Shown piece after piece: positions 5,255 through 20,000 of a DNA stretch of 20,000 nucleotides. The first letter of the stretch is position 1; each line of letters begins with the position of its first letter. The notes beneath the pieces were generated by a model. It saw only the letters and a list, made by a program, of their open reading frames with translations. It was not told the DNA's origin and did not search any database. Where the stretch lies: IMG/VR virus record IMGVR_UViG_3300042453_004632; one strand, written 5' to 3'. The stretch comes from an uncultured virus (IMG/VR IMGVR_UViG_3300042453_004632). Its lineage: Duplodnaviria > Heunggongvirae > Uroviricota > Caudoviricetes. The position numbers and the translations under genes were made by a program.

Positions 5255-5521
5255 ATGAGCAAGAAAAAAACAACAGAAGAAACGCCCAAGCAGGAACCCG
5301 CCGAGGTCCACGAAGAGGACAGGAGCACGATCAAATCCCTCCTTTTCGCCCAAGTGGAAAGACCCAGAAATCTCACGGATGTAAGGATAGTGAATGTATT
5401 TGAAGACAGATACAGAATAAATCTCTGGGTGAAGATTGAGGAAGACGGTCTAGAAAAGAAAAAGATCGCATCCAGTTATTTCGTCCGCTACGACGGAGAA
5501 AGCTTGGCAATCAGGGCGTGA
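5255..5521 (+). CDS. Hypothetical protein (RYRINLW...SYFV motif)
   Basis: 88-aa ORF that fills the region; TATATA 5 nt before ATG. Confidence 0.7.
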   Translation: MSKKKTTEETPKQEPAEVHEEDRSTIKSLLFAQVERPRNLTDVRIVNVFEDRYRINLWVKIEEDGLEKKKIASSYFVRYDGESLAIRA

Positions 5522-5540
5522 AAAATTTTCTGATGCCCCC

Positions 5541-5569
5541 TTTGCAGTCCTGCCGAATCGGACTACAAT
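5541..5569 (+). promoter_or_regulatory. Sigma70-type promoter for the tRNA gene
   Basis: TTTGCA/TTGCAG (5541-5547), 16-17 nt, TACAAT (5564-5569), 17 nt upstream of the tRNA 5' end. Confidence 0.6.
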
Positions 5570-5586
5570 GAATTTGGATCAATGAA

Positions 5587-5856
5587 GGGTCATTAGCTCA
5601 ATGGTAGAGCAACCGGCTTCAAATAGGAGTGCCTAAGAGGAAACTTTTAGAGTAGAACCGCTCAAATTCGGCGAACGCTTTGAAATGCCAACGCCGAGCC
5701 AAGCCCGCAAGGGAAGGTGTAGAGACTTGACGGGCGGCACCTAAAGCCGAAAGGTCATGGTGAAGGCAAAGTCCAAAGCCACAGTCGGAAGACGTAGTGA
5801 AAACTATAGTGACTTTGTTAACCGGTTGGTTGTAGGTTCGACCCCTACATGACCCA
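5587..5856 (+). tRNA. trnK: tRNA-Lys(UUU), intron-containing (exons 5587-5619 and 5818-5856); CCA not encoded
   Basis: Acceptor GGGTCAT/ATGACCC plus discriminator A; D arm GCTC-AATGGTA-GAGC; anticodon stem ACCGG/CCGGT with spliced loop CT-TTT-AA; T arm GTAGG-TTCGACC-CCTAC. Confidence 0.93.
5620..5817 (+). ncRNA. Group I self-splicing intron (IC3, Azoarcus tRNA-Ile intron-like), 198 nt, no internal ORF
   Basis: P1 GCUU^C/GGAGU with U.G at the splice site; P2 with GAAA loop; P3 CCGCTC/GGGCGG; core TCAAATTCGGCGAA...CAACGCCGAGCCAAG...GAAGGTGTAGAGACT; P7 GAGACTT/AAGTCC; P8 CCTAA..ATGG receptor-like motif; terminal omega-G at 5817. Confidence 0.93.
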
Positions 5857-5865
5857 CTAAATATC

Positions 5866-6045
5866 ATGAGTTTCAAAAAACTTGAACAATTGGCGAGGGA
5901 AAGAGGATACACAGTCGCCCGCAAGGGACGAGTGGTGTTCTGGAAGTGCAACTCTAATCCGGGCCACAATGGAACTTGCTACTCTCTAGAAGACACCGCC
6001 AGCGAGATAAACGTCCACTATGAATACAAACTCCTCCACGCTTGA
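5866..6045 (+). CDS. 59-aa hypothetical protein missing from the ORF track; paralog of 19297..19494
   Basis: Manual translation MSFKKLEQLARERGYTVARKGRVVFWKCNSNPGHNGTCYSLEDTASEINVHYEYKLLHA*, which aligns by eye with the 19297 ORF. Confidence 0.65.
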   Translation: MSFKKLEQLARERGYTVARKGRVVFWKCNSNPGHNGTCYSLEDTASEINVHYEYKLLHA

Positions 6046-11841: not shown

Positions 11842-12597
11842 TCAAAACCCTTTCCAAGGACCCACGAGCGAATCAAGAAACGAAGAAAATTTGTCCAAGT
11901 CCTTTTCTACTGTGGAGCCTTGCACGAACAACCTCCAGCGATTCTCCCTCAACGTCTTATTCCACTTTCGGACGAATGCGATACGACGCGCCGCAGCACC
12001 CACATCCACCCATTCGGGAATCAACGCACTCAACTTGCTCGTAAGTTCCGACTCGGAAAATTCCATAAGATCGGAATAGAATAGCACCGGGCATGGGGCG
12101 GACCACACCTGAAGTCGCCACATCGCCTCGTGTATCAACACTTGTTTTACTTTTTCGTCTGCGACGTTCATAAGGCTCAAATAACGACTCGCCTCGTGCC
12201 AGACCGTGCCTGAATTAAATGAACTTGAAACAAAGGCATCAAAAATCGGCAATATGAAATCTGGCCTGGAAGAGGGGAACGTATGCTCCCTGTCCCTGAA
12301 AAGGTACACGACCCACGAACGAGACATGAACAAATCGCTCTTGAAGAACGAGAAATTCTCCTTGTTCATGTTGAATTGCCCTCTCCATTTGGCAAACATT
12401 TGTGCAAACGTCTCTTCGTCCGGCCTCAAGAATATATTTCTGGGACTACGCTCACATCCGAACCACCTGCGGACATCCGGATCGGGATTCACGCACGGAT
12501 TGAAGTATTCACGCTTGTACCGTTGCCCGTGGACGAGGCACTTGGCGAAGAAGTCCGTCCCTTGACGGGGAAATCCCAATAGGGTGAAGTTTTCCAT
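11842..12597 (-). CDS. Sulfotransferase-like P-loop protein
   Basis: N-terminal LLGFPRQGTDFF matches the GxPRSGT PAPS-binding loop; downstream E.FN and late FYSDL patterns are consistent with the fold. Confidence 0.6.
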   Translation of the reverse strand: MENFTLLGFPRQGTDFFAKCLVHGQRYKREYFNPCVNPDPDVRRWFGCERSPRNIFLRPDEETFAQMFAKWRGQFNMNKENFSFFKSDLFMSRSWVVYLFRDREHTFPSSRPDFILPIFDAFVSSSFNSGTVWHEASRYLSLMNVADEKVKQVLIHEAMWRLQVWSAPCPVLFYSDLMEFSESELTSKLSALIPEWVDVGAAARRIAFVRKWNKTLRENRWRLFVQGSTVEKDLDKFSSFLDSLVGPWKGF

Positions 12598-12710
12598 GGA
12601 GATTATCTACGGAACCACGCCCCCATGCCCGAAGGACATAGGAAAAAATCTTCTCGAAAAACACCCGGCCCGGATACCATGCAGTGGTCGGCAACCCAAG
12701 GAGAAAAACC

Positions 12711-13754
12711 ATGCAAGCCATCAGTCGTGCGGATTTGTACTTCAAAGAAGGCTCAAGCGACAAGGTCTACCACGCGACCGTGGAGCCCAAGGACGATAAG
12801 TTCGTCGTCAACTTCAGCTACGGACGAAGGGGATCAACCCTCGTCGCCGGGACAAAGACCAACCAGCCCGTCACCCTCGCGGAAGCGACGAAGGCATTTG
12901 AAAGGCTCGTGAACAGCAAGTTGGTCAAGGGATACCGCCGGATGGAATCCGGAGACGAAACCATCCCCCAGGCCGAACCGGCAGACACTCCGACCGAAAT
13001 CCAGTGCGTCCTGCTCAACCCCGTTGACGAGGACGAGGCCATGATCCTCATCAACGACAAGCAATGGACCGCCCAACCGAAGTTCGACGGCGTCAGGTTC
13101 ATGCTCGGAAGGAAGAACGGGAAGGTCTACGCCCTTAACCGCAAGGGCAAGCAGTCCAGTGTGCCAAACCGGATTCAAGAGGACGCCCCCGAACCGGACT
13201 TCCTCTTGGACGGCGAACTGGTGGGCGAGAACTTTTACGCCTTTGATATTCTGGAACTGGACGGAAACTGCTTGAGGAAAATGCCGCTAGAGGAAAGATC
13301 CAAGATTCTTGAGGAGATCGTACCCGATTCGGAAAACATCAAGTTCGTCCCTCTAGCCACCGGAAAACAGAAGAAGGAACTCCACGAATCGCTCAAGGAA
13401 CAGAACGCGGAAGGAATCGTCTTCAAGAAACTCAAGTCCCCGTACAACACGGGACGCCCCGCCAGCGGCGGCAACTACCTCAAGTTCAAGTTCTACAGCA
13501 CAGCCTCCTGCCGCGTCTCCAAGGTCAACCAGAAAAGAAGCGTGAGCCTCGTCATGGAGTGCGGCACCCAAGTGGGGAACGTGACCATCCCGGCCAACCA
13601 CGAAATCCCAAGCAAGGACGATGTCGTGGAAGTCAGATACCTCTACGCCTACAAGGGAGGCTCACTTTACCAGCCAACCTACCTCGGCAAAAGGAGCGAC
13701 GTTGACCCCGACCACGCCCACACGCTCAAGTTCAAGAACGAGGAAGAAGAATGA
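12711..13754 (+). CDS. WGR-domain / ATP-dependent DNA ligase fusion
   Basis: N-terminal WGR (SSDKVY, YGRRG, KLVKGY); ligase motifs I QPKFDGVR, III LLDGEL, IIIa FYAFDIL, IV EGIVFK, V LKFK; short OB domain (VVEVRY...P.YLG.RSD); AAGGAG RBS before ATG 12711. Confidence 0.9.
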   Translation: MQAISRADLYFKEGSSDKVYHATVEPKDDKFVVNFSYGRRGSTLVAGTKTNQPVTLAEATKAFERLVNSKLVKGYRRMESGDETIPQAEPADTPTEIQCVLLNPVDEDEAMILINDKQWTAQPKFDGVRFMLGRKNGKVYALNRKGKQSSVPNRIQEDAPEPDFLLDGELVGENFYAFDILELDGNCLRKMPLEERSKILEEIVPDSENIKFVPLATGKQKKELHESLKEQNAEGIVFKKLKSPYNTGRPASGGNYLKFKFYSTASCRVSKVNQKRSVSLVMECGTQVGNVTIPANHEIPSKDDVVEVRYLYAYKGGSLYQPTYLGKRSDVDPDHAHTLKFKNEEEE

Positions 13755-14305
13755 CCCCCAAGGAGGCCTACGACCACGCCAAGAAACTCGGACACCGATG
13801 CCCAGATGCGGAAAGCGTCGTCGTCAGGCCATACAACAGACAACTCAAGAAGTTCGTGACCAGGGAAGAACATAAATCACCCCAGATGTTCATGCTCGCC
13901 TTCGCGTACTACAGGAGGTTCGTGAAACTCAGCCCCGAGATCGTCAGGGAAGAATTCAAGTCGGAACTGGAAAAGAACCTCCTCAAGCACTTCCTGCCCT
14001 ACACGTGCTTCGTATACGCCAATCTCACGGGAGCAAAACTTTCAGAGTCCCTACACAATAGGATGATATTGGAAAGTTTCACTTCCGATAACCCATGGAT
14101 AAGGGAATACGTGGAAAACTACGGGGAAGAAAAGCAAGTCAAATTTTCGGGCGCATTTCTTTCCAAGCCCCAAGAAGCCCACAACTGCATACTTGACAAT
14201 CCTGGGGCTTCAAACGAAGATGTTGCGAAGATTCTCAGGAAAAAGGGAGTAGAGATTGCAATCTTTACAATCGTCAGAGCAAGAAAGAAGATTGGTACAA
14301 CATGA
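13751..14305 (+). CDS. Hypothetical protein, family B module followed by possible C-terminal HTH
   Basis: Internal LHNRMILESFTSDNPWIREYV; tail NPGASNEDVAKILRKKGVEIAIFTIVRARKKIG is HTH-like. Confidence 0.7.
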   Translation: MTPKEAYDHAKKLGHRCPDAESVVVRPYNRQLKKFVTREEHKSPQMFMLAFAYYRRFVKLSPEIVREEFKSELEKNLLKHFLPYTCFVYANLTGAKLSESLHNRMILESFTSDNPWIREYVENYGEEKQVKFSGAFLSKPQEAHNCILDNPGASNEDVAKILRKKGVEIAIFTIVRARKKIGTT

Positions 14306-14874
14306 ACTTCACGGAAGAACTGCTCATTGAATTCATGCTTGAGATGAACCCGAGCATGATCCTCAATCGGTGCGCCGACAAAAGGCCTCCCGAGGTGGAG
14401 AGGATCATCGCTACGAGGCCCAAGGAGGCCCTTTGGTACGCCGAGAACGTCATCAAGGGAAGATGGCCCGAGGCGGAAGAGGCAATCGCAAGCAATCATG
14501 AGACCGCACTCGCCTACGCGAGGATCGTCCTCAAGGGCAGGTTCCCAGAATACGAGAAAAGAATCGTCAAGGACCCGAACGTCAGTTTCCAATACTGCCG
14601 AGCTATAGGAAGAAGATTCCCAGAGGCCGAACCGAGGATCGCAAAGTCAACCGCCCGACTCGCAATAAACTACGCTGCCCTTGTCATCGGAGGAAGATTT
14701 GAACTCGCCGAAGCCAAGATCGCCAAGAAACCCAAGTGGGTTCTGGAATACCACGAGAAGGCACTCAAAGGAAATGTTCTTCCCGACGAACTCCACAACG
14801 CCATGACCCTCCACAGTTTCGAAAATCCCGAAGACAAGAGCGTCAAGAGATACTTCCAGACACGAAAACCATGA
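14302..14874 (+). CDS. Helical-repeat protein (YAxxVxxGR[WF]PEAExxI repeats) with family B C-terminal module
   Basis: Four repeats of about 26 aa, then LHNAMTLHSFENPEDKSVKRYF. Confidence 0.8.
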   Translation: MNFTEELLIEFMLEMNPSMILNRCADKRPPEVERIIATRPKEALWYAENVIKGRWPEAEEAIASNHETALAYARIVLKGRFPEYEKRIVKDPNVSFQYCRAIGRRFPEAEPRIAKSTARLAINYAALVIGGRFELAEAKIAKKPKWVLEYHEKALKGNVLPDELHNAMTLHSFENPEDKSVKRYFQTRKP

Positions 14875-15116
14875 TCACCGCCGCCAGCCTCAAGGATTTC
14901 GTCCACAGCCTCGACGAACCCGTCGTCCAACTGGATCCGCCGTTCCGAACCATGGACCTGAGAATCCTCGTCAAGGACGCCGGAAACGAACCCCTTGACA
15001 AATGGTGGCAAGGAAAGAACATGACGCCCACGCTCAAGAAGATCGTCGCAGGAGCCCTGTTGTCCACCAACCCGCCCGAAGAAATCAAAAACTTCATTAT
15101 ACTGCTCATGCTCTAA
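14871..15116 (+). CDS. Hypothetical protein
   Basis: ATGA coupling at 14871; in frame with track ORF 14736..15116. Confidence 0.65.
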   Translation: MITAASLKDFVHSLDEPVVQLDPPFRTMDLRILVKDAGNEPLDKWWQGKNMTPTLKKIVAGALLSTNPPEEIKNFIILLML

Positions 15117-15161
15117 TCAAAAACACACACAAGGAAGCACTTCCATGAATTTAAATAAGGC

Positions 15162-15695
15162 ATGGAAGAACTCGTCTGGAAACCAAGATTCAAGAACCAA
15201 ACCCCCAAGAACGAGACCAACACCACCCGTCTGGCCGCCCAAGCACTCAATGACATCAGAAAAATGGAAAGGATGAGGTCCAACGGAACACTGGATCAGT
15301 ACCTCCAAGAAATGAAACCCAAGAAACAAACGAAGAAATTCAACAAAAAATTGCTCTTCCTACTCCCGCTCCCCCTGCTCGTCCTGCCGTTCCTGCCGTT
15401 CCTGTACGACCACACACACCAAGTCTCGGGCAGACTCAGGAACGAGAAGTCGGCCCTCCACGAAGCCCGAATCACACTCCACGGCGAACAGACCAAGGAA
15501 ACCAACAGCGACCAGGAAGGAAAGTTCACCGTCAAAGGAGTTGAACCCGGCAACTACAAAATCACCGTCCAACACCAGAACTCAGACCCAAAATACGCCG
15601 ACCCCAACACCACGCCCTTCAATATCAGCGTCCAAAAAGACATAGAAAATTTGAACGTCTTCGCCCGAATCAAGATGCCCGCTCAGAAAAAGTGA
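15162..15695 (+). CDS. Membrane-anchored carboxypeptidase-regulatory-like (prealbumin/Ig-like fold) protein, planctomycete type
   Basis: Hydrophobic segment LLFLLPLPLLVLPFLPFL, then VSGRL...SDQEGKFTVKGVEPGNYKITV...PKYADPNTTPFNISV. Confidence 0.75.
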   Translation: MEELVWKPRFKNQTPKNETNTTRLAAQALNDIRKMERMRSNGTLDQYLQEMKPKKQTKKFNKKLLFLLPLPLLVLPFLPFLYDHTHQVSGRLRNEKSALHEARITLHGEQTKETNSDQEGKFTVKGVEPGNYKITVQHQNSDPKYADPNTTPFNISVQKDIENLNVFARIKMPAQKK

Positions 15696-15696
15696 A

Positions 15697-15975
15697 ATGG
15701 ACCTGTCCCTCCTCGAGAACGTGATCCGCGTGGGCCAAATGCTGGACACAAGGGCCAGAGACTTCCGAAACGAAAGGGAATGGGAGGAATACCTCCTCGG
15801 AAACGGCATCGCCCCCGAAAACGACCTTTCATACAAACCCATCAATAGACCGCCCGATACCATGCAGGTCTGGGACACCGGAGGATCCCGATTCAGAGAG
15901 AAATACGTCAGGAAATACCTAGTCATACCACGCGAATTCGCCGAAAAAGCCCTCATCCTCAAAGGAATCCCATGA
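15697..15975 (+). CDS. Hypothetical protein, family A
   Basis: EWEEYLLGNG, VWDTG, IPREFAEKALILKGIP. Confidence 0.75.
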   Translation: MDLSLLENVIRVGQMLDTRARDFRNEREWEEYLLGNGIAPENDLSYKPINRPPDTMQVWDTGGSRFREKYVRKYLVIPREFAEKALILKGIP

Positions 15976-16100
15976 AAGAACTCGCCCTCAAAATACTCGA
16001 AATCATGGAACAACACGGACTCAAGGTCTACGACCTGGAACTCATCGAGGAACTCCTGGAAAAAACAATCATCAGGAACGAGAAGGAATGCTCCCACTGA
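15972..16100 (+). CDS. 42-aa hypothetical protein missing from the ORF track
   Basis: AAGGA RBS and ATGA coupling; MKELALKILEIMEQHGLKVYDLELIEELLEKTIIRNEKECSH*. Confidence 0.55.
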   Translation: MKELALKILEIMEQHGLKVYDLELIEELLEKTIIRNEKECSH

Positions 16101-16122
16101 AACCCCCCACCACCCTTTACGA

Positions 16123-16470
16123 ATGGATGAGGGACAGATACCTCGAAAGACGGCAATGGATACAAAAAAACTCGCAAAAGCCCTCAGGGACAAAAGAGCG
16201 GCCCAAAAAAGACAGAACTCCGCCCTCGACGGCTGGAGCTGGACAAAATACCTCAAGGGAAACGGAATAAGGAAGGTCGGAATCGTCACCCTCACAAAGA
16301 TGGCGAACAAGGGGGAACTCCAGGACAAAACCGTCCTCCAGACAGACTTCGACCTCACAGACCCCGCAAAGAACACCGACGAACTGGAAGGTCTCCAGGC
16401 CGCGGACGTATATTTCTACGTCATGGACAGGGAGACCGCCGAAAAGATCCTCGTGCTGGGACTTCCGTGA
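16123..16470 (+). CDS. Hypothetical protein, family A (start may be 16156)
   Basis: SWTKYLKGNG, LTDPA, MDRETAEKILVLGLP. Confidence 0.75.
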   Translation: MDEGQIPRKTAMDTKKLAKALRDKRAAQKRQNSALDGWSWTKYLKGNGIRKVGIVTLTKMANKGELQDKTVLQTDFDLTDPAKNTDELEGLQAADVYFYVMDRETAEKILVLGLP

Positions 16471-16691
16471 CACAAATGAAAAAGAACTTCAACCTGAGCC
16501 TGACGCCCGAACAGATGGAAACCCTCGGAGTAATCCTGCAGGAGGAGCGCCAAAGGGAGGTGAACATGATCCGGTCCATGGACGGAACCCCCGACGAAAA
16601 GAACCTCCGCTTCTGGGAGGCGGAACTCGACGACCTCCAATCCCTCATGAATGCGGTCCAGGAATACTCATGTGATGGAGAATTGAAATGA
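16467..16691 (+). CDS. Hypothetical protein
   Basis: GTGA and ATGA couplings at the two ends. Confidence 0.65.
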   Translation: MTQMKKNFNLSLTPEQMETLGVILQEERQREVNMIRSMDGTPDEKNLRFWEAELDDLQSLMNAVQEYSCDGELK

Positions 16692-16951
16692 AAAAAGGAT
16701 TTACATTTGTAGAGGCTTTGGTTTGTTTGTTTATTGTTTTAACTCTTATTGGGCTATTAGTCCCAGCAATTCAAGCCGCCAAAAGAAACAATAAGCCCAC
16801 AGAAAATGGCGAGAAGTCTATACCAGATGGTTGGATGTACGACTTTGTTACTGTGAAGCACGACAACCATCTTTTTATCAAGTCAGGGGATGGCGGCATT
16901 ATTCATCATCCTGATTGTCCTTGTTTCACACGAACTGCCGAAAATCAGTAA
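16688..16951 (+). CDS. Short protein with prepilin-type N-terminal cleavage/methylation signal
   Basis: MKKG^FTFVEALVCLFIVLTLIGLLVPAIQAAK; C-terminal HHPDCPC. Confidence 0.8.
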   Translation: MKKGFTFVEALVCLFIVLTLIGLLVPAIQAAKRNNKPTENGEKSIPDGWMYDFVTVKHDNHLFIKSGDGGIIHHPDCPCFTRTAENQ

Positions 16952-17004
16952 TGCCAACCCAGCTTTTATTGAAAATCAAATGACAACCAAGGAGACTTAT
17001 TAAC

Positions 17005-17385
17005 ATGAAGAACAACGTGGCAAGAAGATGGGCCAACGCCCTCCGAAGCGGGAAATACAGGAAGACCACCGGATCCCTCAAGAGGACAGACGGCTCATAC
17101 TGCGCCCTCGGAGTCCTGTGCGACCTCTACAAGAAGCAGGGCGGACCCCTCGGGGAAAAGCCAATTCCTCACAAGGACATATGGTGGGTGGTGGGTGGTG
17201 GGTCCACCCTTGATGAAGAAGGGGCAATCCTACTCGGAGGCGAATCTCAGATCCCCCCCAAGAAGGTCCTCAACTGGGCCGGACTCGGGATCATCCAGGC
17301 CGAAGAGATCGCCGGAATGAACGACGACGGCCACTCCTTCAGGAAAATCGCCACCCACATCGACAAGAACAAGGAAATCCTCTGA
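17005..17385 (+). CDS. Conserved hypothetical phage protein (WxxALRSGxY...CxLGVLC...NDxGxxFxxIA)
   Basis: AAGGAG RBS; motif pattern recalled from widespread phage hypotheticals. Confidence 0.8.
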   Translation: MKNNVARRWANALRSGKYRKTTGSLKRTDGSYCALGVLCDLYKKQGGPLGEKPIPHKDIWWVVGGGSTLDEEGAILLGGESQIPPKKVLNWAGLGIIQAEEIAGMNDDGHSFRKIATHIDKNKEIL

Positions 17386-17403
17386 CCAAACGGCAAGGAT
17401 AAA

Positions 17404-17781
17404 ATGGAAGAGCGAGAACTCCACCTTCTGTCGCGGATTTTCTTCCGAAACTGCGCGGAAAACGTGAAAGCATGGAGGGAAACGGGAATAGGACCGGAGG
17501 ACGACGAAGACCTCACCAAGACAAAGGGATACGCGGCCTTCAGAAGGACCAACTTTAAACTCGGACTAGGAAAGTACGAGTCCAACCGAAGCCTCATCGG
17601 GTCAGCCGAAACCCACCTCAACAGCATGGGATATCACACCACCAGTATCAGAAGCGCACCCCCCGGAACCGTCAGCGTCAGAATCGCAAACGCCGGATCA
17701 TGGAGACTGTGCGTCAGAGTACCCAAGGAAATCGCAATCAGAATCATCGTCCTCGGATTCGTGCCGAAACAAGACACATAG
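17404..17781 (+). CDS. Hypothetical protein, divergent family A
   Basis: AAGGA RBS; C-terminus VPKEIAIRIIVLGFVP. Confidence 0.7.
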   Translation: MEERELHLLSRIFFRNCAENVKAWRETGIGPEDDEDLTKTKGYAAFRRTNFKLGLGKYESNRSLIGSAETHLNSMGYHTTSIRSAPPGTVSVRIANAGSWRLCVRVPKEIAIRIIVLGFVPKQDT

Positions 17782-17911
17782 AGTTAATAACCAACGAACC
17801 CGAAGACAAGAACTTCATAATGGAAATCCTTATGAACGAACCTTGGATTCACGCCGAGTGCCCGCATTGGAATGATGAGGATTTGAAGCACATAACATCC
17901 AAGGACGGATC

Positions 17912-18160
17912 GTGAAATACGGAAATTGCCTGATAGGCGCCTTGATCCTGCTATGGGCCAAACGCCGCGAAAATCCCAAGTTTTTGTTCAAAAACCGCAT
18001 CGGTTCAATAGTGCCGCACTTCATGGTGCGGACCAGAAGCCAAATCCACCACTACAAAACAGACAAAGACCTGTTGCCCTGGCCTTTGTGCTACGTGCTG
18101 TTCCAAGGATCATTCCAGTCAATCCCGCTAGACCAAGAAGACCAATACAGAAAGAATTAA
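17912..18160 (+). CDS. Hypothetical protein
   Basis: GTG start after AAGGA; 82-aa ORF. Confidence 0.6.
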   Translation: MKYGNCLIGALILLWAKRRENPKFLFKNRIGSIVPHFMVRTRSQIHHYKTDKDLLPWPLCYVLFQGSFQSIPLDQEDQYRKN

Positions 18161-18337
18161 CCCATGCGGCACGCAGATATAAACAAAAAGTTCGTTAGTA
18201 ACGGACGAAATGCTAAATAAGGCAAAAAGATTCCTCAAGAAAACTTTCAAACCAGCAAAATCCTGAATTATTAACCCATGTAAAACACATGAAATTCTAA
18301 TCTCATTCCGCCCGATCAAAAGCATCCATAAGGGCAA

Positions 18338-19243
18338 ATGAGAAAAGCATTCACACTGATAGAAGTCCTCGTCGTCATCTTCATAATCTCGTCCATCATC
18401 GGACTACTGCTCCCCGCCGTCAACGCCGCAAGAGAAGCAGCACGCTCCACCGCCTGCCAAAATAACCTCAAACAAATAGGAATCGCCTTCCAACTCCACG
18501 AACAAAGCATGGGACACCTCCCCAGCGCAGGATGGGGATCCGCATGGACAGGAGACGCCGACAGAGGAACAGGCTCCGGACAACCCGGAAGCTGGATATT
18601 CTCCCTGCTGCCGTACATGGATATGCAAAACCTCCACAATATCCCCGCCGACGGAAACCCCCTCGAAATCACAACCCAACAAAAGGAAAAAGCCGCACAA
18701 GCAGCCGAAATCCCAATACCCATCCTCATATGCCCCTCCAGAAGGTCCGAAACCACCGGACCACTCAAACCACAAACACTCTGGAACATGAACCACGCCG
18801 AAAAAGTCTCCAAAACAGACTACGCCGTCAACGCCGGAGACAACGAAGTAGCTTGGGGACAAGGACCAGAACCAGATTCCCAACAATTCGAGGACATGAC
18901 CCTCTCCACCGGAATCGCACACCAAGCAAGCCAGATCAAATTCAGCCACCTCACAGACGGACTATCGAACACCTACATGGCCGGAGAAAAAAGAATCTCG
19001 GCCCCAGAACACGACGAACAAGGAGCACTCTTCGGCTCAGACTCCAATACCGCGAGATGGACCCAAGAACCACCAGCACAAGACTCGGGAATCATAGGAA
19101 ACAACTTCGGCTCCAAACACACCAACTACTGCATCATGCTCGTCTGCGACGGCTCCGTAAGACAAATATCATACGAAATAGACCCCACCACACACAGCAG
19201 ACTCGGAAACCGAAAGGACGGGCAAATAGCGATAATGCCATGA
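18338..19243 (+). CDS. DUF1559 (SBP_bac_10) prepilin-type N-terminal cleavage/methylation protein with H-X9-DG motif
   Basis: AFTLIEVLVVI...LLLPAVNAAREAARSTACQNNLKQIGIA, SW..SLLPYMD, CPSRR, DGLSNTYM.GEK, FGSKH-X9-DGSVR...LGNRKDG: the complete planctomycete DUF1559 signature. Confidence 0.95.
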   Translation: MRKAFTLIEVLVVIFIISSIIGLLLPAVNAAREAARSTACQNNLKQIGIAFQLHEQSMGHLPSAGWGSAWTGDADRGTGSGQPGSWIFSLLPYMDMQNLHNIPADGNPLEITTQQKEKAAQAAEIPIPILICPSRRSETTGPLKPQTLWNMNHAEKVSKTDYAVNAGDNEVAWGQGPEPDSQQFEDMTLSTGIAHQASQIKFSHLTDGLSNTYMAGEKRISAPEHDEQGALFGSDSNTARWTQEPPAQDSGIIGNNFGSKHTNYCIMLVCDGSVRQISYEIDPTTHSRLGNRKDGQIAIMP

Positions 19244-19296
19244 CGAATGTCTGGTCCTCGGCCCCACAACCCTCCCAATCAAGAATTGCTTGAAAC

Positions 19297-19494
19297 ATGA
19301 CTTGGAACGAAATATCCAAATGGGCCAAAAGCCACGGCTACAAGATCAGCCGGAAACAAGGAAACGTCCACTGGCAGAAAGACCAGCACCAAGGAACAGA
19401 ACCAAACCTGGAATCCGCCGCCAAAAGCATCTACAACCACCTGACCGACAACAAATGGCTGGAATACCAAAATAACTACCAGCCAAAATCCTAA
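19297..19494 (+). CDS. Hypothetical protein, paralog of 5866..6045
   Basis: MTWNEISKWAKSHGYKISRKQGNVHW...HQGTEPNLESAAKSI. Confidence 0.65.
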   Translation: MTWNEISKWAKSHGYKISRKQGNVHWQKDQHQGTEPNLESAAKSIYNHLTDNKWLEYQNNYQPKS

Positions 19495-19517
19495 AAGGAT
19501 TATTAAACCGCCCGTTA

Positions 19518-19568
19518 TTGACATATGCGTAATCCCAGACATATGGTAAATTCCTCCACAAGGAGGAA
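19518..19568 (+). promoter_or_regulatory. Sigma70-type promoter overlapped by two degenerate 17-bp repeats, followed by an SD-sequestering hairpin
   Basis: TTGACA 19518-19523, 18 nt, TATGGT 19542-19547; hairpin TTCCTCC-ACAA-GGAGGAA at 19551-19568. Confidence 0.6.
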
Positions 19569-19571
19569 CAT

Positions 19572-19787
19572 ATGGACGCGAGCCTGATCGGAAAGAAAGT
19601 CAAAATCACCATGAAAAGAACCGGAACTCCATTCCCAGGAATGGACATCCGGCCATACTCGTTCAACGCCACACTGGAACATATGGAGGGAAATACCATC
19701 AAAATCAAAAAGGAAACCGGCATGACCTTCCAACTGAACCTCAAAGACCAGTACATGACCGTGCTGGATATCAAACCAGCCCAATGA
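19572..19787 (+). CDS. Small beta-rich protein, possible Sm-like/SH3 fold
   Basis: Perfect AAGGAGG RBS; LIGKKVKITM...FNATLEHMEGNTIKIK pattern resembles Sm/LSm and RimP C-terminal domains (fold is inference). Confidence 0.7.
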   Translation: MDASLIGKKVKITMKRTGTPFPGMDIRPYSFNATLEHMEGNTIKIKKETGMTFQLNLKDQYMTVLDIKPAQ

Positions 19788-19885
19788 GGCCAAGGAAGCC
19801 CCCAGAAGCCCCTAATACAAAATAGCCCCCCCGCTCCACCGCCCGACTACCAAAAACCCTTCACGGGTCAAATGAGGGCCTCATA

Positions 19886-20000
19886 AGACATATGGGAAAC
19901 CCAGACATATGGGAAACCCAGACATATGGGAAACCCAGACATATGGGAAACCCAGACATATGGGAAACCCAGACATATGGGAAACCCAGACATATGGGAA
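19886..20000. repeat. Perfect 17-bp tandem repeat (AGACATATGGGAAACCC)n, running off the window end
   Basis: Six identical full units (19886-19987) plus a 13-nt partial unit; no spacers. Confidence 0.98.

Follow-up and report, generated by a model that had tools for sequence, protein, structure and literature searches.

The right end of a 20,000-nucleotide stretch of DNA from an uncultured virus of the Caudoviricetes (IMG/VR record IMGVR_UViG_3300042453_004632; the whole stretch is referred to below as the window) is occupied by two small genes and a repeat array, all on the plus strand. The first gene (19297..19494) encodes a protein of 65 amino acids (aa), P0002, and lies directly upstream of the gene for P0001 (19572..19787), a 71-aa protein predicted, from its open reading frame (ORF), relatives and structural model, to form an Sm-like or SH3-like beta-barrel. 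A C-rich spacer (19788..19885) leads from P0001 to a perfect 17-bp tandem array (19886..20000), of which 6.76 units lie in the window; its course beyond the window is deduced from P0012, a protein called on a longer contig. Two diverged copies of the same unit cover the hexamers of a promoter-like site upstream of P0001. The array would be a direct-repeat binding array in a phage, of a kind already known, and we tentatively interpret the locus as an iteron-type cluster of DNA-binding sites with operator copies.

Tandem Repeats Finder reports 19886-20000 as an array of period 17, with 6.8 copies of the unit AGACATATGGGAAACCC, 100% matches and a score of 230. A separate script measured perfect periodicity over 115 bases, that is, 6.76 units, with a sharp onset at 19886 and no leftward extension, so that both methods agree with the initial annotation, which had described at least 6.8 perfect 17-bp copies from this position. 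When up to three mismatches are allowed, the 17-mer occurs 7 times in the window against 0.06 expected (none of 200 shuffles reaches 7), and its only match outside the array is at 19537-19553. Shorter pieces of the unit are enriched as well: GACATATGG occurs 9 times against 0.10 expected, and ACATATG 12 times against 0.99 expected (0/200 shuffles reach 12), namely, at 17177, 19521, 19539, 19568 and 19679 and at 7 sites in the array. All 11 copies of ACATATGG are on the plus strand. On the plus strand, none of the three frames of the array is interrupted by a stop, and every unit includes an ATG. The dyad ATGAGG-G-CCTCAT, said in the initial annotation to precede the array, is indeed present in the spacer, at 19872-19884, and the DNA centroid fold retains this hairpin. 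A clustered regularly interspaced short palindromic repeat (CRISPR) array is ruled out by the lack of spacers, and an array of tandem sigma-70 promoters by the promoter consensus scan, which flagged no site inside the repeats. The sole distant copy of GACATATGG (17176-17203) abuts a perfect 7-bp repeat (TGGTGGG, 3.1 copies) within the ORF at 17005-17385, which matches phrog_18067.

The array was also recovered from lake water. Seventeen lake-water runs have words in common with the stretch, with no RNA run listed, and the contigs of four of these (X1, which is a possible source of the stretch, X3, X4 and X5) were compared. In 4/4 runs, the repeat forms a separate 47-bp unitig (17 + 30, a k-mer cycle) of raised depth, and two of the four are neither a possible source of the stretch nor of very low depth. 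The flanking unitig of X1 ends at 19915, exactly 30 bases into the array, as a graph with k=31 requires, and the run contigs show no other letters in the flanks. The initial annotation had named an assembly artefact unsupported by reads as a finding that would undo its proposal; the repeat is present in the contigs of all four runs, each time as its own k-mer cycle, and such an artefact is thereby ruled out. The depths of the repeat cycle and the flank are 64.7 and 13.7 in X1, 46.4 and 14.5 in X3, 35.1 and ~3-5 in X4, and 3.8 and ~2-4 in X5, corresponding by depth ratio to ~6.5, ~5, 9-11 and ~3 units, respectively. With the array length taken as 30 + 17 x the depth ratio, a rough estimate that is biased in low-depth runs, the array would span ~110 bp in X1, ~84 bp in X3, 160-190 bp in X4 and ~55 bp in X5. 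Thus, the array is short, some 5-10 units, and no long satellite, and its copy number perhaps varies between runs.

The perfect units appear to be only the head of a longer, older cluster. When the longer proteins of a collection were searched with 19826-19999 in its natural translation, the search found P0012, publicly annotated as a 137-aa 'hypothetical protein', which is the single member of its cluster and is present on two contigs, the longest of which is 79,690 bp, as is the longest contig for P0001 and for P0002. The first 23 residues of P0012 correspond to 69 nt of perfect array. To agree with both the window and these 69 nt, P0012 has to start at an ATG no earlier than 19943; taking 19943 itself, in frame 1, as the simplest case gives P0012 a span of ~19943-20356. 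Counted from its ATG within the array, P0012 would take the contig on by 411 nt or more, so that the contig apparently does not end where the window does. Because P0012 starts in the array and runs 411 nt on, the array would lie neither at a contig nor at a genome terminus, and this deduction rules out a contig terminus and removes the terminal array that the initial annotation had listed among its options. The perfect part would end at ~20011-20012 and comprise 7.4-7.5 units, in keeping with the X1 estimate of 110 bp.

Downstream of the perfect part, the P0012 translation carries three recurrent signatures, HMG, [DH]IW and [TA]YG, which are the three reading frames of CATATGG. They start at offsets of 107, 135, 167, 183, 216, 244, 276 and 292 nt from the P0012 start, with partial cores at ~65, 152, 200 and 259 nt, and their spacings are mostly 16-17 nt, or 28-33 nt, equivalent to two units. 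The recurrence of one DNA motif in three frames indicates conservation as DNA rather than as protein, and P0012 is most likely a spurious gene call, the translation of a repeat cluster. When the bases allowed by the codons were compared with the unit, we found 11 non-overlapping places after the perfect part with no more than 5 incompatible positions of 17; these 11 degenerate units were picked by total mismatches only. The incompatible positions are unevenly distributed: in the core, positions 4-14 (CATATGGGAAA), 10 of 121 cells are incompatible, compared with 31 of 66 at the six flank positions (Fisher p = 3e-9), and positions 4-8 (CATAT) are never incompatible in the 11 units. Such uneven decay is what would be expected of a binding core with free spacers, with the DNA deduced from the translation. 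The ~11 degenerate units would extend to ~20250, so that the whole object comprises ~21 units over ~0.75 kb: ~7.5 perfect, ~11 decayed and 2 at the promoter. The extent given in the initial annotation thus stands for the 6.8 perfect units, which however only head a cluster of ~19 units with the core kept and the flanks decayed. Between 13000 and 20000, the strands are strongly asymmetric, with the plus strand rich in A and C (AT skew of 0.27-0.45, GC skew as low as -0.24). Residues with T-rich codons (F, C, S, I, L) abound in the tail of P0012, and, judging from these residues, the composition may change just past the repeat cluster.

Two further copies of the unit are located upstream of P0001. 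The 77-bp gap before this gene, the start of which is preceded by AAGGAGG-N5-ATG, a strong start signal, holds a plus-strand promoter-like site, TTGACA, 18-nt spacer, TATGGT (19518..19547; 10/12 in a consensus scan); the call rests on position, given that 17000-20000 contains 2 such sites against 1.9 in shuffles, which is not above chance. On the same strand, the 18-bp unit A (19519..19536; 14/17 positions match) covers the -35 hexamer and the 18-bp unit B (19537..19554; 15/17 positions match) covers the -10 hexamer. Each has one inserted base, yielding an 18-bp period, and the sequence across their junction (19531-19550) shares 90% identity over 20 nt with the unit junction of the array. Because of these matches, together with the identity at the junction, we regard A and B as true diverged whole units rather than chance occurrences of the core, and the degenerate copies that the initial annotation had seen over the -35 and -10 boxes of ORF 19572..19787 turn out to be full-unit matches. 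If the promoter is used, both units are upstream of the transcript start, and therefore recognition as DNA is favoured. The initial annotation had also noted ACATATGG at the start codon and near 19679; both were found, each inside an exact 12-nt plus-strand repeat, GGAACATATGGA (repeat family D6), one copy of which holds the P0001 start codon (19565..19576), with the other in frame at codons 36-39 (19676..19687). Beside the two GGAACATATGGA copies, there is a 28-nt repeat of 71% identity (19590-19716). Together, these repeats suggest either an internal pseudo-duplication of P0001 or two further motif sites.

P0001 is a real gene, given that a phmmer search over 1.84 billion representatives found 7 relatives at E<=0.001, the best with 56% identity and an E-value of 2e-17. 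Six of these are proteins of 72-89 aa, with L, G, V, L, GM, D and Y invariant in their alignment, and the seventh is a 1056-aa protein that matches via a repeated segment; a word-based search with P0001 finds only P0001 itself. Compared with its relatives, P0001 is without most of the N-terminal helix, and there is no earlier in-frame start after the stop at 19530. A single-sequence AlphaFold2 (AF2) model has a predicted local distance difference test (pLDDT) score of 85.2 and a predicted template modelling score of 0.68, and consists of an N-terminal helical turn (residues 3-5) and strands at residues 9-16, 29-39, 42-46, 52-56 and 62-69. In a VIA-align comparison with 48,161 chains, Hfq and archaeal Hfq-like or SmAP chains come out on top (Z of 7.6, root mean square deviation (rmsd) of 1.4-1.5 over 53-55 residues), with numerous Sm and LSm chains behind them; all rows stay below Z 8, the level above which the tool's note sees more than a common arrangement. 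Foldseek returned nothing at E<=0.001 for P0001, and its best rows by TM-score are Hfq chains (TMq 0.66, TMt 0.71). The Atlas model of P0001 resembles SH3-like and RimP C-terminal barrels (TM of 0.64-0.75, under the tool's bar), and the ESM Atlas gave no feature match >=0.9 for either P0001 or P0002.

At the sequence level, Pfam yielded nothing at E<=10 for P0001 except for an unrelated match at 0.069, and a profile of 7 family members retrieved no Sm chain from the PDB, so that by these searches P0001 has no Sm or Hfq sequence membership. The arrangement that characterizes the Sm fold, an N-terminal helix followed by a five-stranded bent barrel, does appear in the predicted model, at Z under 8. 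The Sm-like fold is thus supported as a prediction, in line with the initial annotation, which had called the 71-aa product Sm-like and proposed a structure prediction; the latter yielded an alpha-beta5 barrel with pLDDT 85.2 and Hfq as the top match at Z 7.6. The 1056-aa relative, P0006, has a C-terminal F5/8 type C domain and at least 8 repeats of ~45 aa, each of which aligns weakly (23-33% identity) with P0001 residues 28-70. On this sequence similarity, the P0001 barrel may be related to the repeat module of a structural or adhesin-like protein.

The plus-strand gene directly upstream, P0002, is predicted to adopt an alpha-beta3-alpha fold resembling the double-stranded RNA-binding domain (dsRBD) or HicA (AF2 model, pLDDT 78.7). 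VIA matches it to dsRBDs at Z 4.6 and rmsd 1.7-1.8, and Foldseek ranks 2-5 are HicA chains, weak at E 0.18-0.45; Pfam gave no match, HicA included, and the word search gave no relative. One relative of P0001 was seen in its gene context, at locus L129 on a 181-kb viral contig; this protein, P0009, is 36% identical to P0001 (alignment A1). The nearest upstream same-strand ORF of at least 60 aa there (5506-5805) has a Pfam HicA_toxin match that falls short of the cutoff of 27 (21.4 bits, E-value of 2.8e-4) and also matches a PHROG 'toxin' family with 2.9e-4 (below the curated threshold), and the sequence shows a short open frame between this ORF and P0009. P0002 and the L129 upstream protein do not align in BLASTP. 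A HicA-like gene and an Sm-like barrel gene may therefore form a conserved pair, seen in 2/2 loci with context, by predicted fold in the window and by sub-threshold matches in L129, and P0002 may, on its model, be a partner of the Sm-like gene. Within 6 kb on each side of P0009, there is no array comparable to that in the window, only short low-score repeats; because of this, we conclude that the array is no conserved companion of the P0001 family, from a single relative (n=1) at great distance. Upstream of P0009, at 5831-5899, L129 has a promoter-like TTGACA-17-TATAAA followed by a 12-bp direct repeat of 2.3 copies. This loosely parallels the two promoter units of the window, but small repeats are common in that AT-rich contig.

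The rest of the window is phage-like. All 40 ORFs that were chosen and scanned are on the plus strand; PHROG matches include phosphoesterases, an ATP-dependent DNA ligase and several unknown phage families, and Pfam matches include a WGR-ligase, DUF6915 and two pilin-like proteins with an N-terminal methylation motif. The ligase ORF (12684-13754) combines the ATP-dependent catalytic domain (DNA_ligase_A_M, 3.5e-20) with an N-terminal WGR domain (3.8e-7), a domain combination better known from PARP-type proteins. The pilin-like proteins are encoded at 18338-19243 and 16688-16951, one of them with DUF1559 (E 7.6e-41), a domain that we take to be typical of Planctomycetota; these genes possibly hint at a Planctomycetota host, or at a mimic of the host surface.

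Searches for related loci were largely negative. No locus was confirmed in scans of viral contigs with P0001, P0003 and P0010 or of genome contigs with P0003, and the locus L130, obtained in a scan with P0007, was rejected as a context locus since the match lies inside a 192-aa ORF beside a 497-aa ORF. There was no tblastn match of P0001, P0009 or P0004 in isolated phages, no blastn match of 12001-20000 in phages or of 19250-20000 in plasmids, and no PADLOC family among 7 proteins scanned; a literature search on a 17-bp tandem repeat in phage found no paper. A degenerate scan for three spaced copies of GACATATG gave 7 viral and 118 metagenome loci, and all 125 listed are unrelated minisatellites.

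We tentatively favour a putative iteron-type DNA-binding-site cluster with operator copies as the explanation of these features. The 17-bp array would then be the recently homogenised head of a ~0.4-kb cluster of direct repeats in the same orientation, with the conserved core (A)CATATGGGAAA, which contains the palindrome CATATG, presumably read by a sequence-specific, probably dimeric, protein. Because two older copies sit on the -35 and -10 hexamers, the same binder would shut the P0001 promoter, and the ~19 downstream copies would gather or titrate it, whether as an origin, a copy-control or partition-type site, or a regulatory sink. That a protein binds here, that its target is DNA rather than RNA, and what the complex does are inferred from the arrangement of the sites; P0001 is a candidate for the binder solely on account of its position, with a fold that points rather to RNA. 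Iteron arrays typically consist of several direct repeats of ~17-22 bp in one orientation, and here 6.76 perfect units, 2 upstream units and an estimated ~11 more follow this pattern; units A and B are positioned as repeat copies in the promoter of the flanked gene should be. The adjacent gene for a winged-helix Rep initiator is lacking among the 40 window ORFs. Accordingly, of the iteron and operator layout proposed in the initial annotation, the order of operator copies, gene and downstream array holds up, whereas no Rep, Par or terminase accompanies it in these ORFs.

Several points weigh against this interpretation. Beyond the missing Rep and Par genes, PHROG and Pfam detect no terminase, integrase, repressor or other DNA-binding family in the 40 ORFs, P0001 and P0002 belong to no Pfam family, and the Sm-like barrel predicted for P0001 is a fold known more for binding RNA. 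Upstream of the array lies a C-rich spacer, not an AT-rich unwinding region. With a period of 17 bp, the units are not in phase with the helix, and perfect head-to-tail identity is what slippage, rather than a classic iteron array, typically produces. Exact two-unit patterns were found at 0 loci in the viral, metagenome and genome collections, and the single P0001 relative with context, in L129, has no such array. Finally, the downstream units are read from the P0012 translation, where 'compatible' means codon-allowed and third positions hide changes, and the comparison is ungapped, so that some of the flank 'mismatches' may be small indels.

A rather unlikely, although still substantial, alternative is that the cluster is a neutral minisatellite in which a promoter-derived or other short sequence was amplified by replication slippage, with old copies decaying and a few being re-homogenised, and which has neither a binder nor a function. 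All 6.76 units are 100% identical, spacer positions included; the ratios of repeat to flank depth vary between runs, hinting at variable copy number; and unrelated tandem arrays with GACATATG are common in metagenomes, as shown by the 125/125 unrelated loci listed. However, the decay is uneven (10/121 incompatible cells in the core versus 31/66 in the flanks), two old copies lie exactly on the -35 and -10 of a gene, and the depth ratios are rough and biased in low-depth runs. We consider unlikely an RNA-level module, in which the P0001 message would carry the array on its 3' side and the repeated ACAUAUGG(GAAA) motif would be bound by the Sm-like protein, with the start-codon copy mediating translational autoregulation and the 3' units acting as a sponge. 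No intrinsic terminator was detected on the plus strand between P0001 and the array (of the terminator-like sites that a scan of 17000-20000 returned, all 6 fall on the minus strand), 11/11 ACATATGG copies are on the plus strand, one overlapping the start codon, and the best matches of the P0001 model are Hfq and Sm proteins. Phage LSm-like early proteins linked to RNA stability have been described (PMC12152347). Yet the two best-preserved outlying copies are in the promoter, upstream of the expected transcript start; the Z-score of P0001 is under 8, with no Sm or Hfq sequence signature; the RNA fold z-score is just -2.4, with 0 Rfam matches at E<=1; and the L129 relative lacks such an array.

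A distinctly unlikely variant makes P0001 itself a new sequence-specific repeat binder, an Sm-like ring or barrel that would recognize the 17-nt unit as DNA or RNA at about one unit per subunit, shut its own promoter or start codon, be buffered by the ~19-copy cluster and act as the partner of the HicA-like protein encoded upstream; under this variant, the ~7.5 perfect units would suit a P0001 hexamer or heptamer. Repeated short elements occur in pac and cos sites, and the many short sites in the same orientation, which lie in non-coding DNA where a long run of same-strand genes ends, could accordingly be packaging or processing sites for a terminase small subunit or a recombinase; this is quite improbable, considering that the window encodes no terminase or recombinase family, that the run contigs show no pile-up of ends or joints, although contigs cannot show molecule ends, and that the promoter copies are left unexplained. 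Even more improbable is a real coding repeat, that is, either a genuine P0012 with 17-residue repeats or an array that, at the 5' end of a downstream gene, would serve as a frame-shifting phase switch. All three plus-strand frames of the array are open, with an ATG in each unit, and a gene caller did call the 137-aa ORF, but the same DNA motif occupies three P0012 frames (HMG, xIW, xYG) and so is not kept as a peptide, and P0012 is a single-member cluster with no Pfam domain. ToxIN-like arrays of type III toxin-antitoxin systems have tandem repeats of ~34-45 nt followed by a ToxN-type gene; here, the unit is 17 nt, more degenerate repeat rather than a ToxN-like protein follows, and there is no Rfam match.

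If the cluster is indeed a binding array, it would be a control point of an uncultured freshwater phage, be it an origin, a copy-control or partition site, or a regulatory sink; to our knowledge, almost no phage biology has been described for Planctomycetota. Its 12-bp core and the two tiny proteins encoded beside it also make a clean test pair, from which one could learn whether a repeated sequence can be read by an Sm-like barrel. Even as a mere minisatellite, the cluster would be useful as a strain marker. Repeat clusters are a known trap for gene callers, as the 137-aa ORF called on this one illustrates. Compared with the initial annotation, what is new here is the removal of the terminal-array and artefact options, the extension to ~21 units over ~0.75 kb, the core-biased conservation, the support for the guessed fold and a possible HicA-like partner.

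The proteins and the repeats of this locus each resemble known systems in part. P0001, like Hfq, SmAP and the phage LSm-like proteins T4 GoF, MotB.1 and Frd.2 (PMC12152347), is a small protein, encoded by a phage in this case, with a helix and five strands in its model. Unlike the Hfq and LSm families, to which it has no sequence similarity, P0001 has a nearly absent N-terminal helix, which also sets it apart from its own relatives. Reminiscent of HicA-HicB pairs, the Sm-like gene has, in both loci, a small and possibly HicA-like gene as its upstream neighbour on the same strand; however, P0001 is not HicB-like (there is no HicB family match, and the model is a barrel), and P0001 and P0002 are separated by the promoter-like site of P0001. 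In plasmid and phage partition centromeres of the parC and tubC types, tandem direct repeats are bound by small proteins; a short array adjoins a gene encoding ~70-100 aa and also acts as the operator of that gene, a layout that the present one resembles. No ParA, ParM or TubZ is encoded among the 40 window ORFs, however, and the proteins known to bind such centromeres have ribbon-helix-helix or winged-helix folds rather than Sm-like barrels.

In layout, the locus resembles iteron replicons, where direct repeats of ~17-22 bp in one orientation flank a small regulatory gene on both sides; P1 incC-repA-incA and mini-F have the same order of parts. The flanked gene here encodes a 71-aa all-beta barrel and no Rep-type initiator, the units are perfect and head to tail, and no AT-rich region or DnaA boxes were seen in the part within the window. 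For RctB and ori2 of Vibrio cholerae, a review (PMC6090056) reports sites that double as an autoregulatory operator in the initiator promoter and as titration or handcuffing sites. By the same logic, the two promoter copies upstream of P0001 fit autoregulation, and the larger adjacent array fits titration, handcuffing or origin function.

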